The translations under genes and the position numbers were made by a program. A DNA stretch of 60,532 bases, counting the filler, from Dugesia japonica (lineage: Eukaryota), in assembly GCA_001938525.1 (NCBI GenBank). It is 5 parts of 5 records of this genome, joined end to end, with 100 filler letters (N's around TTAATTAATTAA, not from the genome) between each part and the next. Parts side by side here need not be neighbours in the genome. Positions count along the whole stretch, not along the records: positions 1 to 14,775 come from MQRL01272380.1; 4 more parts are not named here. One strand, 5' to 3'. The notes under the pieces were generated by a model, which worked only from the letters and a program-made list of their open reading frames with translations, made no database searches and was not told the origin of the DNA. This document shows positions 2,735 to 49,592 of this stretch, piece by piece (positions within the stretch are counted from its first letter, which is position 1; each line of letters begins with the position of its first letter).

Positions 2735-4030
2735 AAAATTATTATGATTTCCTCCATTGACAAAAAGTGTATTATCAGCGCTTATGAAAATGGAGAGCAT
2801 ATGAATATTGTAGCCAGGCACGTCAATATCAATAAAGTTACAAGCACAAATATATTATACTGATTGAATAAAACCAGATCAATTTTATCCTGTAAAAGTG
2901 TAGGATAAAAAAGAAATTAATAATTGAAGAAATGGGGAATGAAATCTTGGCGAAAATTGGAAAGTAGCCCGACATAACATTAGAAGAAATGAAAATATTT
3001 TTGCCTCAAAACAACTGCCATGTTTCTTCAGGAATTATTTCAAATGTTTTGAAAAACAAGTTCCACGCGTTCAAGAAACTCAAATATATCAACGTTGAGA
3101 AGAATTCAGACAGAGTTAAGGAACTCCGGAGAGATTATCTAAAAAATATGCTATGTTACTCTGTCCGTTCTGAGCAGTGAGTTTACATAAACGAAACGTA
3201 CTGCAACATTGTAACACAAAAATTGGAAGTACGAACAGCTAGGGGACAATCGACATATTTACCAGTGCAATAACAAAGAAAAGCAAACATATCAATTTTG
3301 ATGGCCATTGGAAAAAAGTGCCCATTCATTTTGAAATCTGTAAACGATCTGTCACTCAGTCAAAATATCAAAATTTTATCAGTGACTTAAGCATTATCTT
3401 GAAATCAAGGCTGCATTATCTTTCATTAAAATAAGAAAAAGCTTCGATCAAAATAAAATGTATTTGTAAACAGGTTCAAATTTTTGACAATATTCTTCTT
3501 CAGAAACATGTTGGTTTCTTGATATATTCAAAACAATAGATCTTTGTTACTCAAATCTTAAAATTTTAAAAGATCTATTGTATTGAATATATCAAGAAGC
3601 CAACATGTTTCTGAAGAAGACTTTTGTCGAAAATTTGAACCTTTTTATAAATACATTTTATTTTGATAGAAGCTTTTTATTATTTAAATGAAATCTTAAA
3701 TGCGATCAATGGTTAATTCCAACAATTATTCTCACAATAATTGTAATTATAAAATGGTTTATCTTATCCATGATAATTCTCCAATTTACAATGATGTCCT
3801 CATTACTGCAGATTGTCATAAAATTTGGAAGCTCCCTCCCTAGAGCACAACCCGATTGAAAATTATTTACCTAAAAAAATTATAATTGAGAAAGAAACTT
3901 ACTGATTTCGATTTTAATTCCAATATTAATTCGAAATTGGAAGTAATCAAAAACGCAATAATGGCTTCTGAGAAAGAAGTTAATTTAAGCAAGTATTTTC
4001 ATCATGAAAAAATCTTTTATCCGAGTTGCT
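2735..4030 (+). pseudogene. Tc1/IS630-mariner DDE transposase pseudogene, interrupted by a foldback MITE
   Basis: HTH-like N-terminus (KCIISAYENGEHMNIVARHVNINK); KKLKYINVEKNSDRVKELRRDY; VYINET (first D region, ~3181); LIHDNSPIY (second D, ~3765); LPP*S..NPIENY (~3833-3870). Contains stops and frameshifts. Confidence 0.7.
3412..3752. mobile_element. Foldback/MITE with ~130-bp inverted arms; family recurs at 21320, 21672, 49021 and 59305
   Basis: 3421-3545 is the near-perfect reverse complement of 3568-3695. The end motif cgatcaatggttaa(t/g)tccaacaattattctcacaataattgtaatta recurs in the other copies. Confidence 0.75.
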
Positions 4031-5037
4031 TGACGTTTGAAAATATATAATAAAATTAGATTTTCTTTTTTTATTAACTTTTATGTTGAAATTAATTAAA
4101 ATATCTAAAAAAAATAATATAAATGCAAAGAGAAATATTAATTAGGGCCTTACTAAATTTCTTTGTTTCTTTATTTAAATGTTTTAACATTTGATTATTT
4201 CAATAACTTTTTTGCCATCATGATGATTTATTGAAAACAAGTGTCTATTTTATTAGTTCTGAAACTGCATGTGTAGAGAGATTCGAAAAGTATAACTAGA
4301 GCATACTAAATTAAAAGCAAGAAAGCGAACACAGAGTCTGAATCCGCTTATGTACAAGCGTTAGCAATTGTTGCTAAAAGGAAGCCAATATTTTACATCT
4401 TTTAATGGATTTTATTCCCTTATAAATATATTAAATCTTATAACTTAATCACTCAAATCTTTATAAAAGTTATTAAAAGTCTTAGAAAATGTATTAAATC
4501 CTAAATTATTCATATAATTATATAAAGAATTAGACCACTATAATCATAACCTTAAAAACATTAATTAAACAAATAGAAAATAATTAAAATCATTTACTCA
4601 TACTTATTTTTCATATAAGATATTACCCCGAGCAATGTTAATATTAATTATCCCCAGACAATATTAACGTTAACAAAATATTACTTAGCAATATTGATAA
4701 TAATGTTAATATCCCCCATGGAATACAACTAAAGAACGAAAGGCTTCACTTTTCTCGAAAATATTAGGATTGAAAACATGTTCACCTTCGAGAAAATTAT
4801 CAAAAATGCAATCAGAGTGTTCAACGGGAAATGATACGATTTGATTTATCATAACATATCCACATATGCAATGTTTTATTAAGCAGAATTAAACGCAAGG
4901 ACATTTATGAACATTAAACAACAATCACCAACACTACAATAAAACCCCGTTAGATATCAATTTTCGTAGAGACAATGAAAGAGATAATCCTATTTAAAAA
5001 ACCCACATTGATACGTTGTTTACATTGTTACAAGACG

Positions 5038-5870
5038 GGTAGGGGGATAGTAGGGCACTGCTCTACTTTGAGAATGGGGACAATTTGTAGAGGATCCCCC
5101 TTCTCCCAGGAAGGGGTCGGAAACCCATGAAGATTGTCCTGTTATTTTTGTCCTGTTTTATTTTTCTAACATTTTTGGGATCAAAATTTTTTTGATCGGA
5201 TCGTATTTTTTGATTCTGGGTGTGTGTGTATTTTTAAATTTTAAGGTTTGTGTGTGTTTGGGTTGTTAAGGTGGATTTTAAAAAGTAGGTCAAGTTGAGA
5301 TTGTGTGTGTGGTTGTATGTGTGTTTGAAAGAAGGAATTTGGACTCGAATGGGAGCTAGAAATCTTGGAAATACTATTTTTGATGTTTTTAAGATTTGAT
5401 TGTTGTTGGACAAACATTTGGTCCATATATTGTCAAAATGACTTATGAGATTGGATGAATGATTTGTCCTAGAAAAGTGGTAGCCCAGGGGGACGGTCGT
5501 AGGAGTTATCGTGGGGTGTTTTTTTGGAGGCTGTTGGTTTGTATGTGATTGATGGATTTTGTTGGTTGATGTGTTGTTATGAAATGTATTGAGTTGCATC
5601 TGAGTTGCATCTATTGCATTTATTTAAATAATCAATAAAAATTCTTAGGCATGTAATTTTTAATGTATGTGTGTGGGGTATGAGTTGTATCCAAGTTGCA
5701 TACCTATTGCATTTATTGAAAAAATCAATAAAAATTATCAGGCATTTGATTTTTAGTGTATGTGTGTTGCATCTGAATTTTATACATATTAGATTTATTA
5801 ATAAAAAAATTCCTTGACACGTGATTTTCAGTGTATGTGTATTGCATCTGAGTTGTATACCTTTTGCAAT
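5038..5870 (+). repeat. Left TIR of the Polinton, with internal tandem subrepeats at 5590-5870
   Basis: 5038-5580 is the diverged reverse complement of 14175-14595. 5590-5870 (gagttgcat...tgcatttatt...aataaaaatt...catgtaatttttaatgtatgtg units) matches 13560-13735. Confidence 0.85.
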
Positions 5871-6089
5871 CATATTTTGCAATAAAAAAATATATTGACA
5901 AAAAGAAACATTTATTACACACCAACAACAACTGGTTTTCTTTTTTATCCTCTAGTTGGATTTCTATTGGTTTCTGGATTTTTATTGGTTCCTGGTTTGT
6001 TTCTATACCTTCTGCATCCAATAAAATTATACATACTAACATAAAAAGTTAATAAATATAGATTCTTTAAAATATTTCATTATTTTCTA

Positions 6090-6690
6090 AATTGTATATA
6101 TTCGCAATTCATCACACAAGCAATATGAAAGCAGATAGATATATGCAACAAAGATAATGAAGATACTCTACCCAATCAAGGGTACAAAGTGATGACAATC
6201 GTCAATCAAGCCTATACACGGGACTATATGAATAATTTGAATATGTGTTTAGTAAATTAAGCAGAGAGAATAAAAGGATAAAACAATCTGGAACCCTTTA
6301 TGAATCCAATGACAGAAATATCCAACAACGAAATTTAGTTGCATCGATATAAGTTGGAGAATAAACTACAAAAAGATCTTCATGCCTTTACAGATATTTT
6401 ATTTAGTGGTGGTAATAATTTTACTAATATTAAGACAATTATTATTATATAATTAGGTTTTAAGAAAAGAAGAAAGCAATAAAACACTTCAATTCGATCC
6501 AACCAACATCAGCTATTTAGATTTATAAGGAAGAAAAAGTTAAAATTACCAATAAATTGAACATGGACATACAATATCAGAGTCTGGAGATAATTAATAT
6601 AAAGAGAACAAATGTTAAAATGCAAGCTCTATCCATTGAATTTGGTAAACAAAGACAATGTCATGTGGATAGTAAGCAAAATAGTGGTAA
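6090..6690 (+). pseudogene. Probable remnant of the Polinton integrase C-terminus/chromodomain
   Basis: YKLE/KVGDK-like segment near 6350 and YQSLEIINIKRTNVKMQAL, resembling the start of a chromodomain. Highly decayed; no DDE core recognised. Confidence 0.3.
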
Positions 6691-7399
6691 TATGTTTTTT
6701 ATTTATGTAAACTTATTAACTATTAATTTAGATCCAGTATGCAATGTCAAACAATCACACCAACATCTTGTTTCTTGGTTGTAAAAGATTTTTTTTATTA
6801 AGTGTAGTAAATATTTTGTGTAGTTTTTTTTCAATGTAATATAATAAATCTTATGTAATCAAAGTATTTTTTATTGTAAACATATAATTTTAATTAAATC
6901 TTATAATTAAATAAAAAATCTTTTTTAAATAACTTTTTTGAATTGTTGGTAATATTTTTAATGCGGATACGAAATAATTTATTTCAATTTTTTCTAGGAT
7001 TTCTTCTATAACAAGGTCCAAATTCATTATTAATAAACATTTAAATTAATTTTGCTTATATTTAATATGCACGTGACATGCACAATACATGCTTGCGTCT
7101 TTCACAATGTATGTTTGTATTAATGAAACTTAATAAATAAAAAAACCAACACATAATAATAACAACTTTTATTTAGATAAATACAATAATGTACAATTTT
7201 GATCCTAAAGAGGACCGGTTATGGGTTCACAATTTTTTTTGGATAATGTTTTCTTTTTTATTCTTAGTAAAAAACAATTAAAATAAAATTTAGAAACCAA
7301 ATAAATAACTAACATTGTTTGAGGTTTTGTTCTTGACCAAGCTCCGTCAGATGAACGGTTTTATGTAAAAAACTATATGATACTATAGTGACCATATGG

Positions 7400-9730
7400 G
7401 ACACTTTTATTTTTGCCTACCCATATGCACTTATTATTTGTATTTGTTTTCTTCAATGTTACGCCTTTGGCTCTCAGGATGTTCTTTTCACTAAGCATGC
7501 TATAGCATTTTGGCGTCAAAAATACCCATTCTTGATACTTATTCCATTTATTTTCATCTTTAACTTTTCTCTATGACTGATTTCATGCTGTTATTATAAA
7601 GGGTATAATTTATTTTTCGTAATTTAGTCTTTTCTATTTCTAGTAAAAATCTATCTGTATCGCCGGCTACAATATTAAATTTATAATTATATCACTTTTT
7701 TTAGTTCTCCAACTCAAAGTACTAAAGTTTATACATTATCAATTTTGAGAGGTCAAGTGCAGTTAGTTCTATATAGCTCAGGCGATCTAAGCAAACTATG
7801 TCCTTTTTGAGAAGAACTGTAATTAAGTCATCATCAATTTTTGTTGTTTTCTTAAATCCAGCTTTTGGTGTATATGTAATCAGCTTCTTTGCCGAAATAG
7901 ATAAGCGCTGATTGATCCTGTTCTTGAGATTTTCCACTGATTTTTCATATTAGCTGTTATTTAACAGTTTATAATAACTTTTATCCAATTCTGTAACACA
8001 ATTTGATCTGAAAATTGTGTAAGTATTGATATAGTAAGTCTCGAATATTGAAGCCTGACTGAATTTTACTCCTTGATGAACCTTCATTACTTTAACTGCT
8101 AAACTTAAATACATCTGCAGCAATCCCCAGTGCACTATGCTATTGTTCTAGGAGTAGTGCGTTAACATTAATTTATTCACTTTACAACCTAAAGCGCTTC
8201 TATGTTCTGCTGCAACCGGTAAATCATTCAAATAATCATGAATTTCGGCAGGAATCACAATGTCTACCTCAAGAGAATATTCATATGATAATGATTCTAG
8301 ATCTGCATTCTTACACTGTCCCAAAACCATATCTAATCCATTATAGATCCTTTTAAAATTTGCAAAGGGCAACCTTTGATTAAATGCCCAACCAAATAGA
8401 TTATTTATATCTATATTCAACAATTCAACATTTTCACTAATGACAACATGGTGCTTGTTAACGAATTTTAACCCTACTCTTATATATCCTTCAAAAAAGG
8501 TATACATATCGTTATTTAGGAGCGACTAAATCGGTTTTTCTAATGACATCAACGCAAATGCACATGAAATTCCAGGTATTCCGAAAAAATTCAACTGTTC
8601 CAAAATATTATATGCTAAAGATTTTGCCCTAAATTGCTCGAAAAGATCAGCAAAAAAATAACATCATATTTAAATATAACATCATATAGTCCAGCAAATT
8701 TGTACATAAAAATATTTCCCACATCGATAATACTTTTTCATACATCCTCCCATTTTGGTGGCATTTGCTTTGTTTCTTCCAAAGCCTGTAAGGTCGTTGC
8801 AAAACTGTACGGAAATAATCCTTTGACTTGGTAATAATTTGATTCTTAAACTGCTCTGTAGTCAAAGGTGTTGCTTTTAAGGATTTAAGTAATTTATGAA
8901 CTGATAACTGTCGAGGAATTAAATTGTTGCTTATTTATTTTGCTGTACAATTAAACAGAAAATTTTCTGATGTTGTCGGGATGCGGGATTTTTCCCAAAT
9001 CTTAGATTTATTAATACCATACTTAAGGATGTGATGAACATCATATTCTCATAACTTATGAAAGACCACTGGTAGTTGAATATGAACTTTTCTACTTAAA
9101 TTGCATTGGTGAAATGTTGCTCCTCTATATTTCCCTGTGAAATGGTCATGGTCACGGACGGGATCTCTTTTTTTCTTATTACATTAGTAACAACTTTTTG
9201 CAGCTTTGAATTCTTTATCTTGATCCTAAGTTATTATTATTTTCTTTTTTCCTTACGTTTCATAATAAAGAAATTTAATGTTTTCGCTTATTTCCTCCAC
9301 AGCCTTTAGGAAATTATACACACAGTCATCTCTAATAAACTGTCTGTTTTTGTTTCGTTGGTAAAATTATTTACCAGCAACATACCAGACGAAACGGGTA
9401 AATGTTTCTGGAAATGCTTCTCATCTGGAGGTAAAACTGACTCAAAATCCACATATATATGTAACAAAAGATGGTGTTATAGTTTTTGAATAATCCTTAA
9501 AAATCAAGTTCTTCTCTGTTGGCATCTTATACATTGTAGTACCTGCCTGAATCTTTTCACAAATTGGTTCACGCTTTTTATATGCTACTTCATTTTTGAA
9601 TTCATTCAGACAATTAGGACACCATGTTGATTGAATGCCAGTTATAAAAGCAAATATCTTTTTCATTTAAAAAAAACAGTGCATTCTTCATAACATCAAA
9701 GGATAAAACATAGCATATTTCTTCTTCATA
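7400..9730 (-). pseudogene. Protein-primed family B DNA polymerase (pPolB), fragmented
   Basis: WCPNCLNEF zinc region; LPVVFHKL*EYD (HNxxxYD exonuclease II); FLDSYQFI; YIRVG (IRGG); NIDINNLFGWAFNQRLP (DxNxLY motif A); YYKLLNNS (motif B); VAGDTDR (DTDS motif C, ~7650-7675). Many stops and frameshifts. Confidence 0.9.
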
Positions 9731-10491
9731 ATAGTTTTTTTAAATTAAAATTTAACTTATAAAAAAAATATTTAAAAACATAATAAAATCAAAAATACTA
9801 ACGTGAATCTCCACCCACTATCATTCGAAATCCTTCACCTCTATGTCTCATTTCGTCAAAATTCTAAATTACATAATTAATTTATTTATAATAAATAATA
9901 ACAATCTTACAGCATTCATAGTTGAAATAAATCTTCTTTCATTTTGTTTATATGAATTCATGATAAATCTAAAAAAAAATAAAAGTCAACAATGTTAATA
10001 ATAATAATAATAAGTTACTTTAAGCTATCTTGAGTTGTTCACTAGTTTTCTAAAAATAATTTGAAATTGTGATGAATAATAATAAATTTTGCCAAGGTTT
10101 TCAACTCTGGCTAATCAAATCTAAGCAATCAAATTCGAGGACATGTGTATTTTAAAATGTCAAATTAATTTAAAGTATTGTAGACATATTACGTTGCGGT
10201 ATTTTAAATCAATTTTTAAAAATACAAATATATTACGTTGTGGTATTTTATATTAATCTTACAAAATACATATATATATAAATATATTACGTTGTGGTAT
10301 TTCAAAATAATTTTATTTATTTTTATTATAAAACGTGTCAAAATAATAATAAAAATATGTATTAATAGCATATTACTTAGAATTTTTTTATAAATAAATG
10401 TTGATTTTTTATTCTTAGTTTTAATAAATAATAAAGATTTCATTTCAATAAAAGACATTAATTTTTTTATAACAAGAACAAATAAATATTG

Positions 10492-10845
10492 TCAAGTGCA
10501 ATTTTGTTTTTTAAACCACAATAAACCTTGTTGACCACATGTAGTTGTAAATGGATCTTGATATCTGATTTTATTGTAAACTATTGGTTTTGGTATTTTC
10601 GATAAATGTGACACCAACATTGATAGATAATAAAATGCTAATGGGTTGAATACCAGTATTTGAGCAGGTTTATTGTAAACAGTTATACAATGTTCTCCAG
10701 CTAGATTTGATGTATGAGTATTGACAATTAACACAATGTTTACTGTAATATATTTTAGAATTTTATCGAACGCATAAACACCTAACCATGATAATCCAAG
10801 CCACTGTGATGCAATCCGATCAATCTGAATAGTACTATTAAAATA
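10492..10845 (-). pseudogene. Adenain-like maturation cysteine protease of the Polinton
   Basis: WLGVYAFDKI, then IVNTHTSNLAGEH(C)I...FNPL...RYQDPFTTTCGQ, matching the NTxxxxxxGEHW / FDS / QxxxxxxCGQ pattern of Polinton proteases. Confidence 0.85.
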
Positions 10846-10872
10846 AAAATCACTTGTATAAAAATCACTTAC

Positions 10873-12036
10873 TTCATAACATGTACCAATTACACAAAAT
10901 ACTGATTACACTAATACTGTTCCGTTTTCTTTAATCTGAATTTCTTTTCCAAATACTCCATAAATTATAACATGCTTGATTTCCAATCTCAAATGTTCTT
11001 GTTGAGGTTATTGACTTTGATTTATATCAAAAACTGGAGCAATACAAATGTAAAGAAGGAATAATTATCCTTAAAATCTTGAAGTGTTATTCCACAATTC
11101 ATATTCTTATCCAAATATCCCATATTTCTTACTATAGATTGCATTTATGTTGTAACATAATTATCGTTTGTAAAATCTTGAGTATATATTTCTCGATAAT
11201 CAGTGTTTTTCGTCAAAGACACAGAAACAGCATCTAAATTTTCAAATGTTGAACTCGAGTTTTTATAAATACCATTATACTGTTCACCATTTTGAAATGT
11301 AACCAGAATAAAGCTAAGTAATCGACGATCACCAATGATTCGTTCCTTATAAAACAATGAACTATCTTTACTAATTGAAAATGCAACGACTTCCTTGGCT
11401 CTTATTGAATAAACAGCATTTTTTCTTCTTTAAACCCATTTGATGAGCAATTAGTACTGAAGGTTCAAAACGTACACGTCTAACCATTAATGTTGCATCT
11501 AGTAATATATATTTAAATTGATTGGCTGCAGATTCCAAACAAATATCAGCATCTGCTTGTTTTAATCGAATATGAATATTGACACCTAGAATAAGGTATT
11601 TCGGTTGATCCATGAAATCGAGTTGCAATGAACCGCAAAGAGCCAATTGTTTTGATATTTTAATAGAATTCTTTCTATCTGCTTCTGATACATATCTAAT
11701 GGCTGTAAGACAGATATTTTTACTATCACCATTATAATTTATTTTAGTTTCAATTATTGCTTTATGAAGATAAGATCGATTTCTACCTTCAATTTTGAAA
11801 TTATTAAATGAAACAATTACATCCTTAAAAAGCGTATGTAGCATATAATTACTCGGAACTGCATCACGAGGGTCAGTCAAATCTTTACCAGACTTATCAA
11901 CCACCTTCACGTTAATATACAATAAAGTATCATTCAAGTCCAAATATTCTATTTGAGATTCATTTATAAAAAACTCTACGTCACTTTGTGATTCAGAAAT
12001 TGAATTCATAGGAAAGACATTTTCGAAAGTATACAT
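10873..12036 (-). pseudogene. Double jelly-roll major capsid protein (hexon-like) of the Polinton, frameshifted
   Basis: VEFFINESQIEYLDLNDTLLYINVKVV...NYMLHTLFKDVIVSFN...YLHKAIIETKINY...LQLDFMDQPKYLILGVNIHIRL. Continues in 11145-11357 and towards 10873. Confidence 0.88.
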
Positions 12037-12057
12037 AGTTCAGTTTTACCGCAAATT

Positions 12058-12260
12058 ATTTTTCAAATATTGTTCCATGGCCTCTTATTCGTTTGTTTAT
12101 ACGTGATCCATGAGATTTCTTACGTTTTCTACTATTTTGTGGTGTCATGACTTGATTTAATAGCATATTAGTTATTTCTGAGAATATTTTAGTAGTTATT
12201 CTTTGCTTCTTTTAGAATCATACTGGTTATTCCCTTAGGAAATGATGATATAACATTTTC
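12058..12260 (-). pseudogene. Basic core-protein-like remnant immediately upstream of the capsid gene
   Basis: ...QNSRKRKKSHGSRINKRIRGHGTIFEK*. A basic C-terminus ending in an xIF motif just before the capsid gene is usual in adintovirus-type Polintons. Confidence 0.4.
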
Positions 12261-12544
12261 AAGCTCAGCTATTTAATTTGGTAGTATTTTTCCGTCATTA
12301 GCTAGGAATCACTATTTAGTTTTATCAACTTTTCTACGCCTCAAAAACATGTTGGGTTTTTTTGTATCCGTCAATATCGTCTTTAGTTTCCCCATAGCAA
12401 CAACTCGATGCAAATTTTAAGTTAACATTAGGCAATGATTGCAATTCACCCATTGTTTATTAAGATATTAGTGAAAGGTGACTATTGTTTATTTGAAATG
12501 ACTTAAGCATAATGCCGCCATTGCAATTAGAAGTAATGTTGCTA

Positions 12545-12770
12545 TAAATTATTTCGTATTACTTTCCTCCTATTTTTTGTATTTACAAATAAGGTTTTTT
12601 ATGTTTTTTCAATGTTTCCTTTTTAGCTTCGCTCAAATTTACATTACTACAAACAATATTTACAATAATCTCAAGTAAATCATCCATAACATATTTTGGA
12701 AATGATTCTCATTGATTTTGATGATTTAATCAAAGCAGTAAAAAACGGAATACTTATTTCTAATTTAATT
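12545..12770 (-). pseudogene. Small conserved Polinton basic protein remnant
   Basis: DDLLEIIVNIVCSNVNLSEAKKETLKKHKK resembles the ExxxNxLxGNVxLxxxxKxxLxxHK motif of the small gene that follows the ATPase in Polintons. Confidence 0.5.
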
Positions 12771-13057
12771 TTTATTTTAATAACAAAGACAGTTAATTGT
12801 TTATAATGATATCCATTTTACATTCATCAATTCAAGTTTCTTTCCGTACTTTTTGTAAGTTTTTTGAACTTGTTCAATTGTTTTTTTTGCTGCATTCGTT
12901 ATCTTATGAGATTGTTTGTTGTGAGATTTATTTTAATAAGACTGATTTGTCTTTTTCTTCAAAACTAACGTTTTTCGTTGTTTAACAACATCACCGCCAG
13001 TAACTAAATCAACTACAATTTTCTTAAACTTTGCCATTTTATATAATATTATAAAAA

Positions 13058-13500
13058 TTACTTATTTTGTTTATATACTGTGATACCATTACGGTTGATT
13101 ATATCAGTTGTCATCCTATAATCATCTGGACATTGTTTTGTAAAGTCTACAATTAGATATCCATGTGGTTTTTCTATGGCATCTTGAAATGATTCAATAA
13201 CAAATTGTCTGATATTTGGATATGCTTGTCTCGCTAAAAAATCAACAATAGTTTGATCTCTAAGAATTTTGAATAAAACCAAATTTTGCACGTAAAAATT
13301 ACGTGTTATATGACTACCTTCTCGAGGAAATAGATTTTGAGTTATAAATATTACAGTCAAATTAAGATGTCTCGATATCTTTGTGAATTAACTATTGAAA
13401 TATTTTTCTTTGTTTACCTATTGATACAAATCATCAACAACAATAGCATGACCTGGTCTTATTTATTATTATTTCTGAATTAAGCATTATTTCTGAATCT
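13058..13500 (-). pseudogene. A32/FtsK-like DNA packaging ATPase (Walker B half; Walker A lost)
   Basis: AIVVDDLYQ (Walker B, ~13425-13450)...FTKISRHLNLTVIFITQNLF...NLVLFKILRDQTIVDFLARQAYP...DAIEKPHGYLIVDF. Confidence 0.88.
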
Positions 13501-13559
13501 CAAAATCTTGTTTTTTCCCTAATTTACTCATAATTTAGTACATTGTTTATAATTGAAAG

Positions 13560-14595
13560 TTAAAAACACACTAAAAATCACGTGCATAGGAATATTTTAT
13601 TAATAAATGCAGTAGGTATGCAACTTATATGCAACCCTCATACATTAAAAATCACATGACTGGGAATTTTTATTGATTTTATCAATAAATGAAATCGATA
13701 TACAACTCACATGCAACTCATTTGCAACATACACTTTTAGACTGCCCAATTCCTTGCAAAATATCAAGACTACCCCATACAATGCTAAACTAGAGCGTGA
13801 CTCATGCAAAATATAGAAACTGCCCCATGCAAATCATAGAGACTTGTCCATGTAAAGTTTCAAGACTGATTCATAACATGCTAAATATAGAGACTATTCC
13901 ATGCAAATTATCAAGACTGCTCTATCTCATACATAATTATAAAGTCTGCTCAAAAAAAATTAAATTTTCCATACCCACCTAACAGAGAAATTTCAAAGAA
14001 ATCTTAGAAAATTCCATAATTAATTGTCTTTCCAGACAAACCTCTGTCCCCCGCTTAAAATTTTTTTAACACACTTATACTACTTACAAAAATCAATTAA
14101 TCAAATTAAAGCACTAAAAATTATAAATTAAGTCATAATCGACATCAAAATTTTCTCAATCACATTTCCTCTCAAACAACACATCTACCAAGAAAATCCA
14201 CCAAGCACATACAAACCTACAGCCTCCGAAAAACACCTTAGGATAACTCATGTCCCGTGCGCTACTACACTTCTAGGACAAACCATCCATCCAACCGCAT
14301 AAGTCCTTTTGACAATATATAGAACAAAGTTATGTCCAACAACAACCAAATCTTAAAAACGTCAAAAAAATTATTTCCAAGATCTCCAGCTCTACCTCGA
14401 GTCCAAATTCCTTCTTTCACACATAGACACCCAGGATCAAAAAATATGATTCAATTAAAAAAATTTTCATTCCAACAATCTTAGAAAAAAAACCAGGACA
14501 ATCATAATTTGTTTCCGAGCCCCACCGGGGGAGGGGGGTCCCTTCCATATTATCCCCATTTTCCAAGTGGCGCCATGCGCTACTATCCTCCTTCT
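13560..14595 (-). repeat. Right TIR of the Polinton, with a right-specific block at 13740-14170 carrying agactgcccatgcaaa-type subrepeats
   Basis: Reverse-complement match to 5038-5870. Confidence 0.85.
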
Positions 14596-14775
14596 AAGAC
14601 GGAATAAAAATTAAAATTTTCTCTGCAAAAGTAAATAATGTAGTCAACCCTCGTCAATGCGGACAATACAGCAATCTAACTAAACATCAAACAAGTTGAA
14701 TAAAAAAAGAAACAAGAAGATGAATGATTAGATAAAAAATATATCATTAGAAAGAAAACGAGAAAAGGACAGCTA

Positions 14776-14875
14776 NNNNNNNNNNNNNNNNNNNNNNNNN
14801 NNNNNNNNNNNNNNNNNNNTTAATTAATTAANNNNNNNNNNNNNNNNNNNNNNNNNNNNNNNNNNNNNNNNNNNN
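14776..14875. other. Artificial scaffold/contig join (N44-TTAATTAATTAA-N44)
   Basis: Identical 100-bp structure at 23720-23819, 38014-38113 and 48921-49020. The linker gives stops in all six frames. Confidence 0.95.
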
Positions 14876-14899
14876 ACTTCAATTGCATTTGCTTCTCTT

Positions 14900-16009
14900 A
14901 TATTGGGACTAAATGATACTTCTTTCTTTGAACTATTTCTAGAATCATTTGATGAACTTCTACATACTCTTGCTATATGACCCTATTTATTGCAGTTATA
15001 ACATTTTATTTGTCCTCTTTTATTCAATTTATCTCTACCCTCATTTGAAAAGTATGGGCTTGGACTTCTTCTATTGTCATATCTCTTTGGACTATATCNN
15101 NNNNNNNNNNNNNNNNNNNNNNNNNNNNNNNNNNNNNNNNNNNNNNNNNNNNNNNNNNNNNNNNNNNNNNNNNNNNNNNNNNNNNNNNNNNNNNNNNNNN
15201 NNNNNNGACTCGAATTTCTATTATAATTATTATAATTGTTGTAATTGTTATAATTTCTTCCAGGGCTTGAATTTCTATTATTATTATAATTTCTCCCTGG
15301 ACTTGAATTCCTGTTATAATTATTGTAGTTTCTTTGTTAGTAATCAGTCTTGAATTTTATACTTTGATCTTTTCTAGTATCTTGTTTATTTTATATGCTT
15401 TCCTCATCTCGTCCCATGATGATTCTTCATTACCTGTTTCAGTCGCATATATTTGCCTAGTTTTCTCTTTGTGTTTAGTATTCGCCTCTATTCGCCTTGC
15501 TTTTGTCGTTACTTCTTCTAAATTTTTATACTCTGCTGCAATTAAAGCATCTCGAATATGTTTATGTGTCCCATTTAAAAATTGAANNNNNNNNNNNNNN
15601 NNNNNNNNNNNNNNNNNNNNNNNNNNNNNNNNNNNNNNNNNNNNNNNNNNNNNNNNNNNNNNNNNNNNNNNNNNNNNNNNNNNNNNNNNNNNNNNNNNNN
15701 NNNNNNNNNNNNNNNNNNNNNNNNNNNNNNNNNNNNNNNNNNNNNNNNNNNNNNNNNNNNNNNNNNNNNNNNNNNNNNNNNNNNNNNNNNNNNNNNNNNN
15801 NNNNNNNNNNNNNNNNNNNNNNNNNNNNNNNNNNNNNNNNNNNNTAATCTCTTTATTAACTCTGCCTCTGTCCACCCACAAGCTGTGGCACAAACTAGCA
15901 TATGTTCAAAATATTCGTCAAACTCTTCAGGTTTTCCTGCATAGAACTGAATAGGTAATATATTTAGATTACACCGTTGATTAAATCCACCTCCTACTTG
16001 ATTATTCAT
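14900..16009 (-). pseudogene. Gypsy/Ty3 gag (capsid) region, gapped
   Basis: LPIQFYAGKPEEFDEYFEHMLVCATACGWTEAELIKRL and QFLNGTHKHIRDALIAAEYKNLEEVTTKARRIEA (major-homology-like region), downstream of a primer-binding site and LTR on the same strand. Confidence 0.75.
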
Positions 16010-16464
16010 TGGTACATTTCCAAACGGTACATTCTCATCATTTTTATNNNNNNNNNNNNNNNNNNNNNNNNNNNNNNNNNNNNNNNNNNNNNNNNNNTTG
16101 TTTTGCTTTTTGAATTTTTAGTTGATTTCCAAAACTTTTACACTCCTTTGAACTTTGCTGGATTTTTCGGGTGTGTCCAAAATGTTTCCATTACAACAGT
16201 TTGATACAAAGTTTAGATAAATACGTGACAATAACTCTAATTTACCCATTGTTTATAAAAAATTTGCTAATACTGATTGAATTTTCTTTTAAAGCAACAT
16301 ATAAAAGCACTTTAAAAGATCTCCCTTTAAAGTTCTATATGAGCGAAAAGAGCTGTTACACGAATTGTTGAGAAATGAATCCGCTAATCATAAACAAATA
16401 GCTAATTAAACAGAAGTAGAACTAAAACGAGTTGTTGAGGAATAGAGATAACACGAATCAGATA

Positions 16465-19393: not shown

Positions 19394-21319
19394 TAATGAT
19401 AAAATATAGAAAAATATTAAATGAGATCAATTCAATGTGGATACTATTTGTTGGTTATATTTTTTGTTATTAAGAAACGATTTGTTTGGATTTAATAAAA
19501 TGATTGGTAAAAAATTATTTCTGTGTTTTTTAATATTATTTAATGTTGAGATGAATTCAGGATTATTGTGAACCCAAATCAACAATTGCGTGATTTTAAT
19601 GAAATACCAAATAATCCAAGTAATTATATATTGCACTTGTATGTTTTCCTATATAACCTTAAATATTATTATTATAGATAATAAATATTATTATAGTTAA
19701 ACTATCTAGTCGACCTTATATAACAATGAAAAAGAATTTTTCTTTTAGAAAAATATAATTGTATTACAATATTTCTTTCCAAATTAGTCTGCGTTAAAAA
19801 TTTGATCACTGAGTGTTGATTCAAGTAGATCTTGACTCTATTTGTGATTTTCAAAAAGGGGCGCAAAACTAAAATTTGCGTACATATTTATATTAAACAG
19901 GCCACTCGGTCATTACATGTAAATTAAAAATAAAATCAAATATTTATAAAAATTTTCTAAAATAAAACGGATATTTACAAAAGATTTTCTAATATTTATA
20001 TAAATTACATAAATATTACCTTTTATTAATAAAATTCGATCAATAATTTCATTATTAACAAAATCCGATAAACAGGATATGAAGATACAGTTGAAATATC
20101 ATTACATTAATAGAAATAAAATAATACATAATAATTAAAAAAGGTAAAATAATGTTAATAAAACATAAAATTGTCAAAAGAATTGTCCAATCAGATGATA
20201 CATAAAATTGATTATTCAACAATGTACAATTGTCATAATCAAAACACAAGTGAGGTTGTTAAAATAAAACTTATCACACGCAAATGTAACAAATAAAACT
20301 GATCGTAGAAATTGAATTTTAATTGAGGGATACGGATTTAGGTTTGACTGACTAAGTAGTATTGTTTTGAATGTTTGTAGTTTTTTGTGCATGTTTGTGT
20401 ATTTGGGAGCACATTTAAATACTTGTATTGTTTTGAATGTTTGTTGTGCATGTTTGTGTATTTATGTATTGCCCAACATTATCTCTAATTAGACAACAAT
20501 ATTTACAATTAAGTTTATTTTAGTTTTATATAAAAGTTTTTATGAAATTAAAATATTTTTATTTTTTAACTGTTAAATCATATTAACAATTTAAATTTAA
20601 GAAATACAAAATTTTAACATAAAATTGCGGTTATTTTTAGTAAGTGATCAATGCCGCTCGTCGGTTTTAAACAGTATGCTTGGTTGTTAGTTTTTTAAAG
20701 GGGAACTCCTTAATAAATTTTATTTAAAACATAGAATTAATAAATTAAATATATTCACGTCTAAAAAATTAAGAGGGCTTGAAAATCCAGCTCCACAGTA
20801 TATAATTGATATTTTTCAACAAAAAAATACTGATACATGGACACAATTTAATTATGCAAATTACAAATTAAATGGTTATAAAGATTATATCAATTATTTA
20901 GATAATTAAGTTTATGACCGAGAAGAAACTGAACTAGACGATGTTCACATTTTGTCGATATTTACTTTTAAAAAAATCTTTGAAAAAAATAAATATTATA
21001 AGCTTAAAAAATGAGTAATACATTTTACTAACAAAAATCTAAACTTAACTTAAACTACAACAAAGAATTCAAACACGACATAAAGAAAAATATATATTAA
21101 AAATCTCTCCAACATCCGGTTCTATTTCTAACTTAAATAAATCTAGAGGCAATCCTTTTCAATCATTACTATTAGTTAAATTCAAAACTTCACAACTCTC
21201 CATCACTTGTATTTATGATTACAACTGTATTTAATTAAAATAAAATTTAAATCAAGAATAATTCATAGTATTCAAACACATAATCTGAAAAAATTTTCAA
21301 TAAAATAATAAATATTCTT

Positions 21320-21860
21320 ATAATTACAATTATTGTGGGAATAATTGTTGGACTTAATCATTGATCGCATTTGAGATTTCATTAAAATAAAGAAAAGCTT
21401 CTATCAAAATAAAATGTATTTGTAAAAAGTTTCAAATTTTCGACAATAGTCTTCTTCAGAAACATGATCAAGACTTCTAGATTGATTCAAAACAATAGAT
21501 CTTTGTTACACAATTCTTTAGATTTTATCAGATTTTTATTGGTTTATTTTAATTATGAATTTTAATCTTATTTTTAAATTAGCTCTTAAAAATTTTACAA
21601 AAAAAAGAAAAAAAATTGTAAAATTTTTAAGAGCTTATAATTATATTATAAATTATACATTGTATTATTATTTTACAATTGCAATTATGGCGAGAATGAT
21701 AGTTGGACATAAACATTGATCGTTTTATAGAATTCATTTAATATAAAAGCTTTGATAAAAAAGTCAATTCCTGACAAAGACAAGGTCTAAATATCATATT
21801 GTTATACAATATCGATAAAAAAAACCAAAATTTTGATCAAAGGTTTTATATTAAATGAAT
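21320..21860. mobile_element. Two further copies of the foldback/MITE family seen at 3412-3752
   Basis: taattacaattattgtgggaataattgttggacttaatcattgatcg at 21320 and a variant at 21672. Confidence 0.65.
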
Positions 21861-24800
21861 TGTATTATTATTATTTAAATTAATTTAATTAATTAATAAA
21901 TTAAGTGTATACCTAATAATAATAAACAGAGATATAGTTAAAACAATAAATACCAATAAAAAGCTACCATATGCCATTACATGTAGTAAATATAAGGAAG
22001 AGTTAAATATATGAACTGAAGTTGCACAATCATTGAAAATGACAAACAATTCCGCATAAATTCAATATTAAATTAAATAAGAAAGTTAAATGCAACAATG
22101 ATATAAACTATGACAATAAGGCTGTGCAACAAGTTTAGAGTTAAATAAAGTCACTGTAATAAAACTCGAAAATATTCACTTGCTTTAGTCATTTATTTTA
22201 ATTGTTAGAAAATAGTTTTGTAATAAAATAGATCAGATAGATGAAATTTCATTTTTGGTTTATTAAATTTAATTTTTTATCAAATTTAATTGGTAAATAC
22301 TTTAAATTTAAGTATTGTTTGTTTATAAATATTTTTAAAAAATCTTTTCAAAAATTAGAATAGTCATTATTTGTTTAATTAATTGTATTTAATAATTAGC
22401 CATTTGTNNNNNNNNNNNNNNNNNNNNNNNNNNNNNNNNNNNNNNNNNNNNNNNNNNNNNNNNNNNNNNNNNNNNNNNNNNNNCGAATGTCTGATTCGAG
22501 TTTTTTAGAGTATCTTTTTGAAACTCATAATTCACAATTGAATAAGCCTCTGATTTTTGTCGTTATGTCATTCTATGGTTTTAGATAGAAAAGTGAAGTT
22601 AAAAACTGGTTAAGCTATATTACCAGATAATTGTAATCAAACTGACCCAATTCGACTTGTTTATTAATGTGAAGATGGAACAGAATAAAATGTAAGAATC
22701 TTAGTGAAAGTTATTTAGAAATTAATTTCGTTCTAATTGAATTTTGTTTAATTTGTATAAATAGTGAATATGAATTAAATGTCAACGAAGTGTTTAATAT
22801 TTTAACTTATTATTTATGGTTTCTTAATTTGAACATAAACAAAAATTCATCGATAGAATGAATACGGAGGTGAAACAAATTCATACATACTTTTACCTGG
22901 TTCGATAATCGTCAATAAATAGGAGATTGCATATCTTACCATCGAATGTACTGCATCATTTTATTATTTCAACTATGATAAAACACTAAATTGCAACGAA
23001 GAAAATAAACATTCATGTTGAAAAGCTATGAAAAATACTATTAATTCATTAAAATCAAAAATAAAGATACTTTCATATTGTATTCTATTTTACATTTATA
23101 TAAAAAACTAATATGAAAATTTTTTTAAAAGGATTTCACTAAAATACGGCAAGCAGTGTGGATTTTGTCACTCAATTAAAGTTTTATTAGCATTTGAGAA
23201 TGCAGTATTTCTATTATGTTTTCCGGCCAGTTTTTATGACAGCAAACACATTTGTTTGAAATTATTTAAACAAAATTATTATGTAAAAAATTGCATTAAA
23301 GCAAACATTTATTTAAATTCCAATAAAAAGTTTTGCACTTATTCGTGCTGTGCAGTTATCTGTTCTGTGTACAAATTATCACAATTTAAAAGAAATAAGA
23401 AAAATATATTGCGGAAATAACTCGATAGAGACGATCTAACTTGTAAAATATTCAAACATGAGGTTATAAATATAAGCGTTAATGAAGATGAAGATTTTGT
23501 TGATCCAGTTTGTGATTCAGTTAATGATCCGATTGTTGATTTAGTTCGTAATTCCGAGGTTCTTGTTAAAGCGTCGGGTATTTCTACTCAATAAAAGATT
23601 TTACAGTTTGGATTTGAAACTATAATTGGTAGAAACGATCTAGTTATTTGACGGTTGTTAATGATGCAGAATTTTTCCTTGTTTGATAATAGTTGTGTAG
23701 CTGCTCTATTATGTAATTGNNNNNNNNNNNNNNNNNNNNNNNNNNNNNNNNNNNNNNNNNNNNTTAATTAATTAANNNNNNNNNNNNNNNNNNNNNNNNN
23801 NNNNNNNNNNNNNNNNNNNTTAAATAATTAAGTTAATTAAATTTTACCCTTTAAAATTATCACAAAAACTGTATATTTTTTACCAAGTGCAGAAACAATA
23901 AATAACAAATTTTATAAATCTTTTATTATATTGCAGAAATTCTAATTTAAAAATCATTCAATAATTAATTCAAAATACTCCCATGACATTTCATTATTGC
24001 TGTACTCGTGTTTTTCATTTTTATTATATTGGTATTTCTTGCTCGATTGATTCTCGCTATTGTTCTTGGATTCGCAATGATTGAATCGAGCCTTCTTGAT
24101 ATCAATACAATTTTCCCATAGACTTGAATTGTGATATTAATGATCAGACGAGTTCTCCAAATTCATCTAACAATTATTATATTCTTTATCTTTATTATTT
24201 GGGAATGTAACTTGTAAACTAAAAATTAAAAAAAGAATGCTTTTAATTTTCTATTTCTATTGTAAAATATTATGAAGCTTAAATGTGCTTAAGAATACTC
24301 TTGTTTAAATAATTGGAGTGTTGTATTGAATGTTTAATTTTTAAAATTGCGTGAAATCGCGAGTTATAAATTATGTGTCAAAAAAATATTCTGATTTTGT
24401 TTTTGGAAAGTCTACTGTGGATATTTTTATTGAATAGAAATTTTTAGTAATTAGTTATTAATTGCAAAGTATTTTTATTCTTTTATCGGTATTGCTATTA
24501 ATATTATCTTTCATTGGAATTACATGTGGTAAATAATTTTAATAATTGTTTACAGAATAAATAAGACTTCTTGTCATTATCCATTACAGAGTTAGTTCTG
24601 ATAAGAATATTTTAATTTTAAAAGAAGATGGTTTCCATATTAATAAATGTTAGAAAACATGGATTTATTTGGTTTTAATGTCTAAAACGTCATTTTGGGG
24701 CGTAATTCTTTTCCAAATAAAAAGAAAAATGTTCACTATTTTTAAATCAAGATACTTTAAAGGCAGCAAGAGATTCAACTACCAGATAAGAGTTAATTAT

Positions 24801-40349: not shown

Positions 40350-40501
40350 ACTTAGAAGTATGGATAAAACACAATCAAAACAATAATTGGCTAGATGTGC
40401 CTGCTATAGTCTGTCTCGTCGATACTGACTCTTCCAAGACTAAAGCAGAAAGCACCTAAGAAATTTCTGCTGATAAAAGTAAATTTGTTCATAAAATTAA
40501 A

Positions 40502-40966
40502 GTAGATTGGTTTACTGATATACATATTGATAGATATCTGTCTAAATACATTACCAATAAATCATTTGCCCATATTAATCAATGCTTGGTTAAAGTTCTT
40601 TCTGCAGATGACACTTATAATAATTTACATAAGTCTGCCTTCACTGCATCTACTATTCTATGTTCTGTTAATATTCTGAATCTTCACTGGGTCCTCTTTG
40701 TGTATGACAAAAATGATAACACTTCTTTTGTCATAGACCCAATCAAAAATGTCTTTTATAAAGATGTTACAATTTATCTTGTTTTTAAAATTAACAAAAG
40801 TCTAAACAGAATTTATGGTATCAATAATATCTTTATTGAGCACCAGTTTAGTAGAGTTGCATATCAACGCGAAGACTATTATTGTGGTCTTATTGTTTGT
40901 TATTACGCTAATAATATAAGCAATGGTAAAAATCTGATGAGCAAATCAGATTGTGATACAATTTGA
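40502..40966 (+). pseudogene. Ulp1/SENP (C48)-like cysteine protease domain of the retrotransposon
   Basis: DWFTDIHIDRY...NLHWVLFVYD...FVIDP...YQREDYYCGLIVC; His, Asp, Gln and Cys are all present. Confidence 0.85.
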
Positions 40967-42403
40967 CAAAATGCCTTCGATTTGCTAACACGTAATGAAA
41001 TTGCCTCTCTGTATGGTGCTGGTGACTTTACGTATAGTGACTTAAACAATCTAGACATGTATGAATCTATAAAACACTGGTTTATTAATGATAAGAATAT
41101 TCTTATTCTCCCACTGACAATTGTTTACAATCTTCTAAAAAATGATATAGATTTTATAATAGATAATATCTCTTTCAAAGAATTTAAAAATATTATCAAT
41201 GTTATTTGCATATTTACCTTTGATAATTATCTTTATTTATTTATATACTCAAACTATAATAAATCTAGTTTCATTTTTCATATCCATAAAAATGTCACAT
41301 CTGAATATATTCTTAATTGTGGTGATGCTCTAAATGACAATCTTAATACTTTCTTTCTAAACAATTATGTAAAGTTTATGGATAACCACGAAATTAATTT
41401 TAAACAGATCAATAAAATCCAAATGTAAATACGAAAACATTTATAAGAATTATTTCTTACTTGATATATCAAGAAGATATCACTGAAATCGAATTCACTA
41501 ATTATCTTAATTTTATCAATAAAAATATCAATACTAAAATCCTTTATAACATAGATTCTTTAATTTTCATCAATTCTAAAATCAATAATGATACTTATCA
41601 TAAGTTCTTTAATAATCTTCAGCTTCCTTCAACATATATCTTTTTGGACAGAGTTATGTGCCATGCATTGATAGATGAAATCTGGCAGCACTCGTCTAAA
41701 TTTATAGATTTAGCAAGATTTTATAAATCTGAAATAATTTTTGCAATCTTTAAATCTTGTTTAAATCTCCTTGTTATTGATTGTACTATTAATGAATTCT
41801 ATTGTTTTGATCCGTGTTCAAGGAACCTGAAACCTGAACATCTGACTCTAAGCCAGTTTTTACTCGATAGGGTGCTTATTGCTAGTGGTAAATCTGATAT
41901 TAATTTTACCTTAAACACTTGTCCACACGACTTCAACATTTCATCCAATTTTTCCAAAATTCTCATTTGTTCTTTTATAAAAAACTATTCAGTTGATATT
42001 CCTTGTCATAATTCACCGATCAAAAAACCTACATCTACTAAAGTTATTTCTAAAAAGTTGACTCTTTCAGAGAGAAAAGAATTCTGTAATAGCATTCTTG
42101 ACTCAGTAAAATATTCTGACACAAACAGTATTATGAATGCTTTAACTGTTAACTTTCCTAACTATAAAAATTCAAAAAACGGTTATAAATTTTATCTTGG
42201 GAATAAAAAAATGCAATAAAATTTCGGAAAAATAAGTCTTCAAACTAGCTTCATAAAAGAGATGAAAAAACTGTTTATCATATACTAAATAATAAAGAAA
42301 CAAAAATAAGACCTTCCCTTGAAACTCATTTTCTACATCAAGAACCGAATAATGAATGTACATGGAATTTTTCTAATTACAAACGTATTGGAGATTACCG
42401 ATA

Positions 42404-43260
42404 ATGCTGGATAAAATTACTACTGATGAAATTCTTCATTTTTTCAAAACTGCTGATAATACAGCTCCAGATTTGGGTGGTATTACATACAAAAACCTAC
42501 AATCACTGGACCCTGAATGTTATTTGCTATGTCATCTTTACAATACTATAATATCTACAAAAAGTTTTAAAACGATTCTACTGCCAAAACCCGACAAAAA
42601 TGATAAATATCACGATGTTTCCTCTTGGAGACCAATCGCTCTTTTAAATTCCTCTTATAAAAAGTTTACTGCAATCCTATGTCAAAGATTAAGTACTTGG
42701 TTAAAATCTAATAACTTGCTTCATCAAAGTCAAAAAGCGGAATCCAACTTTGAAGGTTGTGTCGAACATAATAGTATATTAACTGCTGAACTTGACCATT
42801 CAAAATATACAAACAATTATATTTCAATACCTTGGCTTGACATTAAGGATGCCTTTGGTAGTGTTCCTCATAAATATATTTGGTCTTTACTCAATCACAT
42901 TGGTGTCAGTAATGAATTATCTACTATTCTGCAGCTTTTGTACACTGATAATAGTTCATACTATTGCTGTGATACTCTATAAACCAAACATCTTAAAATT
43001 CACCGTGGTGTCAAACAGGGTTGTCCGTTTTCAATGATTTTATTTTCTAAAGCGATCAATGCTGTTCATAAATCAATATCTTCCTTATTTATTCCTTGCT
43101 ACTACATTGGTGACTAAGGAATACAAATTTTATCATACGCTGATTATATAGCTTGAATTGCTAATAATTCTAATGATCTACAAAAGCTAATCAATCAAAG
43201 CATAATTACTAGTGTTATATTGGTTAGACTCACAGACCCGAAAAATGGGCATATAAAACG
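42404..43260 (+). pseudogene. Reverse transcriptase domain
   Basis: RT motifs as listed for the element; stop at 42982 and YADD decayed to YADY. Confidence 0.92.
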
Positions 43261-44044
43261 TTTCTTCACTCAAGACTTAACTTTATTTTTCGCATAAGGG
43301 AAATAAAAATATCATGTTTGTCTGCTCCTAATAAAACCTCTAAAATAAAATACAACATGAATAGAAAAATCTAATCATTAATTTACAAAATTTTAAGTAT
43401 ACTCACATATACGGAATCTTGTTATTTATATGCTAGTGTTGATGAAGGAGTTATTGGCCTCACTAATCTACAAGATGAGTATTATCATAATTGCATTATA
43501 CAAGCATTCAGACTTTTAACTACTCATTGTGACTATTCTAGAAAAATTATTAGTGATTCACTCTATCATACAGTTCAAGTCGCATCAAATTAAATCCTCT
43601 TACATTTGAAATGTGCCTTGATTTGCTTAACGGAATTGACTCCACCCGGACGGCATTAGCCTGTAAAACATGGTGGATTCGACCTAGACAAGCTATAAAA
43701 CACTTTTGCAGCACTTTAAAAATTATAGTTTCCTTAGAACTTGTGGAGAATAATGTTCAACTTCGTAATACTACATTAGATCGTGGTTCAAATGTTATAA
43801 CCTCTAATCAAAGTAGGACACTATCGCATACCTTACGTCTTTGGATTCATGAATATTATGGTAGTATTTGGCGCCAAAGTAAAAAAAGCAATTTTCTTGC
43901 TGAAACGGTTATTGACAATCCAAAAGTTAATAAAGGTATCTTAAAAGGTAAAATCAGCACATTTTATTGACAATTCATAGGTAAAGCTAAAATTAACACT
44001 TTACTTATTAACTCTAGACCAATGAATAAACATCATCACAGCGG

Positions 44045-44591
44045 ATCTGTAGAAAATGTGATCACCAAGAAGAAACTATGTCACATATTCTTCAAAAATG
44101 TGAATTTAACATGAAAATGGTTACTAAAAGACATGATTCTTGTCTTCAAATAATTTATGATAATCTTATCAACCCTAATCTCATTGTTGTCATGGACGAC
44201 AACTGCTTTTTAATTCCTAATATTACAGAACGTGTTGACCTAATGATAATCAATGATGATAAAAAACGGATGTTCCTTAGTTGAAATAAAATGTCCCATT
44301 GATTCTGAGATTAATTTCGAAAAAACACATAAATTATATATTAATAAATACAGTAATCTGAAAAACAAAATTCAAAAAATTAAGTCTAACTACAAAGTCA
44401 GTTTAGATACTTGTATTTTTGGTTCTTTAGGTTCTGTTCCTTCATATACGAATAAGGTTTTAACTAATATTGGTATAAACAAATCAAAAGTGGATACAAT
44501 AATAAAATCTAGTGTATTTTTAAACATTGAAAACTCTGCAAAAATTTGGCACTTTCAGTGGTCTGATAAAACGTCTAATGTTGATTTTTAA
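44045..44591 (+). pseudogene. CCHC zinc knuckle plus PD-(D/E)xK restriction-like endonuclease
   Basis: CRKC...ETMSHILQKC, RHD, RVDL...EIKCP, KY; frameshift near 44270. Confidence 0.85.
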
Positions 44592-49094: not shown

Positions 49095-49592
49095 TTCTTC
49101 ATAAATTTAGAGATTTTTATCTGCACTTCTTATAAAAATTCCTAGCTGTACATTGTCAGTCAAATCAGTGCTCTCATCAAGACATAATGAAAAAGCTTCG
49201 AACTTAGATATTTTTTCTTTTAATAATTCAATAATATTTTGTGAAATTTCACTATTTCTGTTGAATACCGTGTGGCGTGATAAACTAGCCTTTTGAACTA
49301 GTTTTTGTTTTTCTGGGATAACATTATTTACAAGACACCGTGTTGCCTCTTTTATATATTATCTATCAGTAAATGGTTTCAATTTTATTGCTATTGATTG
49401 CGAAACCGAGAAACTAGCTTTTACGATATTCAATGATTGTAACATTGTCTTTTTGAAAAAATCCTGTTCAGCAGTTAATGTTTTTTTTAAATTATTAATT
49501 TTATGCAATCGTATTTCTGCTGTAAATTCACGAAACTCCTCGTGCTGTTCTTCATAGTGTCTTTTTACGTTAGAGCCTTTTATATTTTTCAT
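49095..49592 (-). pseudogene. hAT Buster/Charlie (GTF2IRD2/SPIN-like) transposase fragment
   Basis: SNVKRHYEEQH; KASFSVSQSIAIKLKPFTD; SLSRHTV; FSLCLDESTDLTDNVQLGIFIR. Confidence 0.85.

Follow-up and report, generated by a model that had tools for sequence, protein, structure and literature searches.

A decayed, Polinton-derived relic bounded by terminal inverted repeats in the genome of Dugesia japonica

We examined a stretch of 60,532 nucleotides (nt) from the genome of Dugesia japonica (GenBank assembly GCA_001938525.1), hereafter the window, for an element of 9,558 bp that spans positions 5038-14595, contains no N letters (N = 0) and carries remnants of the genes of Polintons, also known as Mavericks. 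A preliminary description of this DNA had read the element as an endogenous Polinton virus bounded by both terminal inverted repeats (TIRs) and a 6-bp target site duplication (TSD), and these boundaries were borne out: sequence comparison placed both copies of the hexamer AAGACG directly against the inverted termini in exact register, an agreement between two 6-mers that has a chance probability of about 8e-4 at the base composition of the window. A 16-letter pattern of the ends, searched for across the whole window, matched at 5038-5053 (+) and 14580-14595 (-) alone, with 0.11 matches expected and at least two matches in 0 of 100 shuffles; the pattern was derived from the element's own ends, and the result thus speaks for the uniqueness of those ends in the window and for nothing further. 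The TIR cores, 440-560 nt in length, were identical at 365 of 436 aligned columns (84%; Kimura two-parameter distance, K2P, 0.18) with one 91-nt indel, and inside them an inner repeat module was identical at 124 of 154 columns between 5680-5834 and 13568-13721. Both ends resemble the (AGT)n type described for Mavericks (PMC8097293). The left junction between host and TIR was crossed without difference by public contigs from two runs of two studies (X1, 4846-5186; X2, 4714-5141), one of which may be the source sample, and the interval 13648-13956 was recovered in public contigs with 0-1 differences. Just inside the left repeat module, a short frame (5890-6050, -) begins with a hydrophobic stretch and includes a six-residue repeat; no match was found for it.

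Gene profiles were built from 70 related loci (L numbers) taken from 141 pattern matches in a metagenome scan. On the minus strand the order of genes was ATPase, basic gene, small Cys-containing gene, core-like gene, capsid and protease, with the polymerase (pPolB) likewise on the minus strand (Table 1), in agreement with the earlier proposal of a co-oriented cassette of ATPase, small basic genes, capsid, protease and pPolB. The ATPase-to-protease order is that of the relatives and supports a Polinton origin of the element. The capsid gene had been placed at 11371-12036, a range that proved to hold just the first 55% of the gene, which extends to 10909, while its assignment to the double jelly-roll (DJR) capsids held by way of the relatives. 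Among 531 candidates, a search with the 221-aa frame at 11374-12036 identified 35 intact proteins, each 392-413 aa long, with a top identity of 69%, and in a frameshift-aware alignment 275 of 382 residues (72%) were identical to the intact protein P0001. Neither 17 raw open reading frames nor six intact capsid relatives matched Pfam, and the capsid profile had 0 matches among PDB sequences, so a fold search was needed. It was the relatives' capsid alignment (A1), not the window's own broken gene, that was modelled (predicted local distance difference test score, pLDDT, 86) and that carries the evidence for the fold: in a Foldseek comparison with the PDB, the model matched the DJR capsids of iridovirus, PBCV-1, Sputnik, mavirus and vaccinia D13 (best E 3e-17, TM 0.6-0.68), and in a viral library the top match was a Polinton-like bracovirus protein (E 4e-26). 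PF21738 is annotated on 30% of the members of the atlas cluster, and a viral contig collection scanned with the capsid, the capsid alignment, P0160 and P0049 yielded no locus. A quick tree of 69 capsid rows placed the window capsid in a 15-row clade (support 99) nested within a 45-row clade (support 99) that includes the integrase-bearing loci L002, L003, L005, L008, L009 and L020. The protease retains its His and Cys motifs, and its relative in L010 matches PF00770 weakly (E 0.013). The ATPase matched positions 76-210 of a 211-position profile (13471-13067) and kept Walker B, whereas the part with Walker A, present in 9 of 10 relatives, is missing.

Table 1. Positions of the features of the element, counted along the whole window
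Feature	Position	Strand	Basis
Left TSD copy, AAGACG	5032-5037	+	sequence
Left TIR core	5038-5593	+	alignment to right arm
Inner repeat module, 2-3 tandem units of 75-93 nt	5590-5861	+	repeat scan and alignment
Decayed accessory gene, family of ~240 aa	6186-6790	+	homologs; profile matches of 87 and 56 bits
Probable 45-nt GT-AG intron in accessory gene	6687-6731	+	motif scan and homolog frames
pPolB pseudogene: Zn finger, exonuclease, HNH/endonuclease VII insert, polymerase	7379-9636	-	profile, independent E-value (iE) 1e-111
Two intron-like GT-AG segments (10018-9969 and 9910-9864) upstream of the pPolB match	9864-10018	-	motif scan; coding role unproven
Repeat of ~45 nt, three copies, between protease and pPolB	10173-10315	.	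repeat scan
Adenain-type maturation protease	10498-10836	-	profile iE 4e-31; aligned part without stop or frameshift
Major capsid protein pseudogene, double jelly roll	10909-12059	-	homology and relatives' model; 2 stops, 3 frameshifts
Core-protein-like small gene, 3' part	12059-12199	-	profile; precedes capsid in relatives
Zone of internal deletion (integrase and penton)	12200-12372	.	span comparison, profiles
Small Cys-containing gene, 5' part	12373-12453	-	profile 19.5 bits; precedes integrase in relatives
Small basic gene, one frameshift	12556-12817	-	profile iE 4e-12; follows ATPase in relatives
Packaging ATPase, C-terminal two thirds, 2 stops	13064-13471	-	profile iE 2e-55
Inner module, single inverted unit on right side	13568-13721	-	repeat scan and alignment
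Tandem array of 23-nt units, lying between right inner module and right TIR core, unpartnered on left	13803-13918	.	repeat scan
Right TIR core, terminating in CT	14155-14595	-	alignment to left arm
Right TSD copy, AAGACG	14596-14601	+	sequence

The span from ATPase to capsid measures 1,005 nt here against 3,104-4,059 nt in eight measured relatives, and in the relatives this interval holds an integrase in 10 of the 10 loci that have both genes and a penton-like gene in 9 of 10. A 13-sequence profile of the retroviral-type (RVE) integrase found no match in the element (best local trace 2.9 bits), nor did a 29-sequence profile find a match in the window for the relatives' minor capsid gene, which we take to be the penton from its position and size rather than from a database match. 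Given the short span and the genes flanking the gap, both of which are cut mid-gene, about 2.1-2.4 kb were deleted. The element also has no TBP-like gene and at most a 6-bit trace of the exonuclease-like gene, at 10215-10078. The preliminary description had credited the element with the Polinton-defining gene set, which is not what the locus holds, as the integrase and penton are deleted; Walker A and a detectable TP/vOTU are also absent. Its reading as an endogenous Polinton provirus survives with regard to the Polinton/Maverick origin; with the integrase and penton gone, though, the element is a derivative and not a whole provirus, and with its genes broken besides, it is likely unable to move or to make particles alone.

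The pPolB had been expected at 7400-9730, and a profile match recovered it as a pseudogene at nearly those positions (Table 1). Its frame is broken by 12 stops and 8 frameshifts, and over 747 residues it shares 53% identity with P0049; the ExoI, PolA, PolB and PolC motifs were located within it, its relatives carry PF03175, and its insert is an endonuclease VII/HNH domain (PF02945, E 1.6e-5). The domain layout described for pPolB is TP-vOTU-Exo-Palm (PMC11161782). For the TP and vOTU domains, intron- and frameshift-aware profile alignment gave scores of 11.5-16.6, inside the range of 7-22 obtained from 40 window controls and 20 shuffles, although decay could hide remnants of TP, and the vOTU Cys motif, present in 36 of 49 relatives, is absent from the element. 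Survival of the TP domain as short exons at 9700-10140 was suggestive by eye and is unproven, its scores of 11.5 and 16.6 falling within the control range. The pPolB faces the capsid in all seven of the seven related loci with both genes, and runs in the same direction as the capsid both in the main copy and in a second fragment of the family found in the window (described below), which suggests that this layout is a trait of the family. Of 31 of the 748 flatworm rows in Table S3 of PMC10748475, 18 place the integrase match on the 5' side of the pPolB start and 13 on the 3' side of the pPolB end, by a count made by eye from a table that does not give the integrase strand and in which some matches are weak; the co-oriented layout is therefore probably not unique and may exist in full-length elements.

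One gene is encoded on the strand opposite to every other gene of the element. This plus-strand accessory gene was missed in the earlier gene list. A search of 1.84 billion representatives returned six matches to its family, four of them genuine (P0156, P0157, P0159 and P0160), with identities of 69-71% for P0156 (71% over 83 aa) and of 35-45% for P0157, P0159, P0160 and P0164; P0158 and P0161 were dropped as repeat-rich chance matches. The family had no match in Pfam or PHROG and is absent from all 70 related loci, a model built from seven sequences gave an unusable fold (pLDDT 37), and the other plus-strand frame in 6120-6830 had no match among 42 candidates. Contig depth over the accessory gene resembles that over the other genes, from which we infer that it travels with the Polinton family. 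Three homologs do not continue in frame across 6687-6731, where P0156 and P0157 depart from it and P0160 ends, whereas P0159 and P0164 continue across the segment through a low-complexity linker; P0156 resembles the window gene too closely to count as independent. Judged from these proteins alone, the segment is probably a conserved intron of the accessory gene. A strict scan of the element found four intron-like segments, where 30 shuffles had a mean of 0.63 and a maximum of 2. One of the four, 6412-6456, was rejected as an intron, since the homologs need that length as coding sequence. Intact vertebrate Mavericks are described as lacking introns (PMC8097293), introners have been reported in dinoflagellate Polinton-like elements (PMC12166617), and no report of introns in flatworm Polintons was found among the listed matches of a literature search on Polinton introns and pPolB.

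The description of the element as old and decayed was well founded: frameshift-aware alignment over 1,357 codons revealed 16 stops and 11 frameshifts. The stop-based clock gives about 7% drift (95% interval 4-11%) and the TIR-based clock, from the K2P between the cores, about 9% per arm; the two agree, and drift since insertion is estimated from them at about 7-9%. In four DNA runs of one organism, 19,711-47,031 contigs per run aligned on 3900-14770, mostly 80-95% alike and covering all 30 bins in four of four runs. Summed contig depth, which is no measure of copy number, was 12-37 in the flank at 4263-4988 and rose to between thousands and hundreds of thousands within the element, with a roughly tenfold fall in the bin adjoining the core gene on its right (12249-12611). 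That second fragment of the family occupies 33339-34964 (-) and contains capsid residues ~144-406, a protease stub and part of the pPolB on the same strand; it is more broken than the main copy, to which it has 78% DNA identity in the capsid part, and its deletions differ from those of the main copy, which indicates that copies lose pieces independently. Together with this fragment, the tens of thousands of aligned contigs argue that the family is abundant. In window coordinates the fragment is situated ~20 kb from the element, with a CUB-domain exon of a host gene on either side.

Animal Polintons/Mavericks (eupolintoviruses, "adintoviruses") share with the element long TIRs, a 6-bp TSD, a pPolB, a DJR capsid, an adenain protease, an A32-like ATPase and core-like small genes (PMC8097293, PMC8502044, PMC6431247), but they measure 15-25 kb, whereas the element is 9.6 kb, has no integrase, penton or detectable TP/vOTU, and has broken genes. 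Four Repbase Polinton families of 11.6-15.9 kb are recorded in Schmidtea (Polinton-1_SM, 14,867 bp; Polinton-2_SM, 15,944 bp; Polinton1_SM; Polinton2_SM; PMC4028283 Table S1); compared by tabulated sizes and genes alone, they share the capsid, ATPase and protease with the element and differ from it in that all four have a penton. DNA/Maverick elements are reported as expanded in Dugesia (bioRxiv 10.64898/2025.12.11.693146), 748 integrase-linked pPolB1 loci and 0 pPolB2 loci are given for 8 of 73 flatworm genomes in PMC10748475, and planarian Polintons are silenced by the PIWI protein SMEDWI-2 (PMC8532177). With Polintons so well recorded in planarians, the earlier suggestion of a lineage not catalogued in this host is doubtful; Polintons as a kind are probably catalogued in the host group, and Repbase, the.doc supplement of PMC4028283 or preprint supplements may hold this very family. 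The closest intact comparison is with the metagenome relatives L002, L020, L006, L017 and L059 (P0001, P0049), which have the same ATPase-to-protease order, capsids 55-72% and pPolBs 44-55% identical to those of the element, and the same endonuclease VII/HNH insert in pPolB; they keep the integrase, the penton and the TBP-like and exonuclease-like small genes, which the element does not. An HNH-type nuclease inside pPolB, as in the element, is also described for the pPolB2 of nematode and oomycete Polintons (Jeong et al., PMC10748475), and a literature search found no paper on a Polinton pPolB with endonuclease VII. The 120 polymerase matches listed, and the PDB, included no named reference for the pPolB1/pPolB2 or Alpha/Beta classes. 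The relatives also carry host-like cargo, namely a ubiquitin-conjugating enzyme (L020 225-719, E 2e-12), a dual-specificity phosphatase (L017 952-1260, E 1e-20) and a TBP-like gene (L002 2175-2618, E 2e-17; TBP-like matches in eight loci), and L019, L020, L021 and L058 have a tandem pair of penton-like genes.

We conclude with considerable confidence that this 9,558-bp element represents a dead Polinton (Maverick) copy with internal deletions, which integrated with a 6-bp TSD and then drifted by an estimated 7-9%. Set against an autonomous Polinton, it lacks the integrase, the penton, TP/vOTU and intact intronless frames and is a Polinton-derived relic, and the present copy cannot encode an integrase, a penton or a whole ATPase, capsid or polymerase. 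Insertion was likely carried out by an RVE integrase that left the 6-bp duplication. If established Polinton biology applies, the intact ancestor would have copied itself by protein-primed pPolB from the TIRs, and its virion module would have comprised the capsid, penton, ATPase, protease and core proteins still encoded by the intact loci L002, L020 and L059. Several observations weigh against this account. The left end opens with GG and not AG, while the right end is the CT expected from the AG...CT motif of Polintons; the right junction is absent from the contig pieces listed; no empty-site allele was seen among 15 of 1,007 joints listed, so the TSD is read from the sequence alone; the stop-based clock assumes equal substitution rates, which do not hold in an AT-rich genome; and three separate differing blocks plus the pPolB orientation are many events for 7-9% drift, a history that a founder already deleted would fit equally well.

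That last point bears on timing. The large deletions may mostly have followed insertion, an order that is slightly favoured given the second copy's own deletions and the drop in depth beside the gap. Within the same Polinton origin it is possible, though we lean away from it, that the deletion and the pPolB rearrangement arose once in a non-autonomous subfamily that was spread by the proteins of full-length Polintons. The ends and TSD were kept though the integrase is gone, capsid and pPolB share one direction in both window copies, which are 78% identical, contigs cover every bin in every run, and Repbase includes non-autonomous "N" Polintons from fish and sea anemone (PMC4028283 Table S1), all of which speaks for a subfamily; yet no deletion-bridging contig occurs among the pieces listed, the tenfold depth drop at 12249-12611 fits other copies that continue into sequence missing here, the second copy has deletions of its own, and the co-oriented layout may exist in full-length elements, to judge from the 18 of 31 flatworm rows of PMC10748475 in which an intact pPolB frame has an integrase match on its 5' side. 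A host-adapted flatworm satellite subfamily, in which the pPolB was flipped into line with the virion genes, the integrase and penton were shed, and spliceosomal introns of 45-50 nt were acquired in the accessory gene and the 5' part of pPolB, strikes us as unlikely. A chimera or mis-assembly of two Polinton copies with hexamers that match by chance is improbable: the family is high in copy number, the window has N gaps from 14776 on, the TIRs are just 84% alike and contig depth is uneven between the two ends, but the TSD is in exact register (p about 1e-3), no N falls inside 5038-14595, public contigs recover the left junction and 13648-13956 with 0-1 differences, and the TIR divergence matches the gene decay. 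Hardly credible is an endogenised virus that lacked an integrase from the start, as do the MELD viruses of Hydra and a spider, which have neither integrase nor OTU (PMC8502044); integrase and vOTU are indeed both undetected in the element, but the genes beside the gap are truncated mid-gene, the penton that a virus needs is lost as well, the capsid falls in clades with integrase-bearing loci (support 99 in the quick tree), and the 6-bp TSD points to an RVE integrase.

The window is 74% AT, and its CUB-domain exons (PF00431; 32196-32390 and 36461-36640, both +; E 2e-17 and 6e-9) indicate an intron-rich animal host. At 38115-38379 there is a further Polinton-like terminus (AGTAG when read from the minus strand) with a GC-box-like tandem array behind it; it is cut by an N gap, and its similarity to the element's ends is confined to the first ~25 nt. 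At 40460-44600 (+) there is a decayed non-LTR (long terminal repeat) retrotransposon whose reverse transcriptase (PF00078, E 3e-11) is preceded by a Ulp1-like protease (PF02902, E 0.01), presumably NeSL-like given this architecture. We also take 14824-16120 (-), a region with many N gaps, to be a Gag-like remnant of LTR-retrotransposon type from a CCHC knuckle recognised by eye, and 2900-3400 (+) to be a broken Tc1/IS630-type transposase, likewise by eye; neither has a Pfam match. A small palindromic repeat resembling miniature inverted-repeat transposable elements is present in several copies (3421-3778, 21292-21760, 49021-49118 and 59271-59391). The window is joined at 14776-14876, 23720-23822, 38013-38113 and 48918-49020 by N gaps that each enclose a central TTAATTAATTAA spacer, and adjacency across these joins is not evidence.

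The element is a further copy of a known kind and for the most part a commonplace fossil from a widespread repeat family. Taken as one locus it is of minor importance, because decay is the normal state of Polinton copies (in vertebrates, 96% of Maverick loci are fossils of this sort; PMC8097293), but it offers a datable insertion with two agreeing clocks. The accessory protein family with its probable conserved intron, and a pPolB orientation unlike that of seven of seven close relatives, could matter more if they hold for the Polinton family. Should the deletion be common to many copies, the family would include a satellite Polinton that keeps the capsid and polymerase and borrows integration, and such a satellite, if real, would bear on the question of how far Polintons behave like viruses or like transposons.

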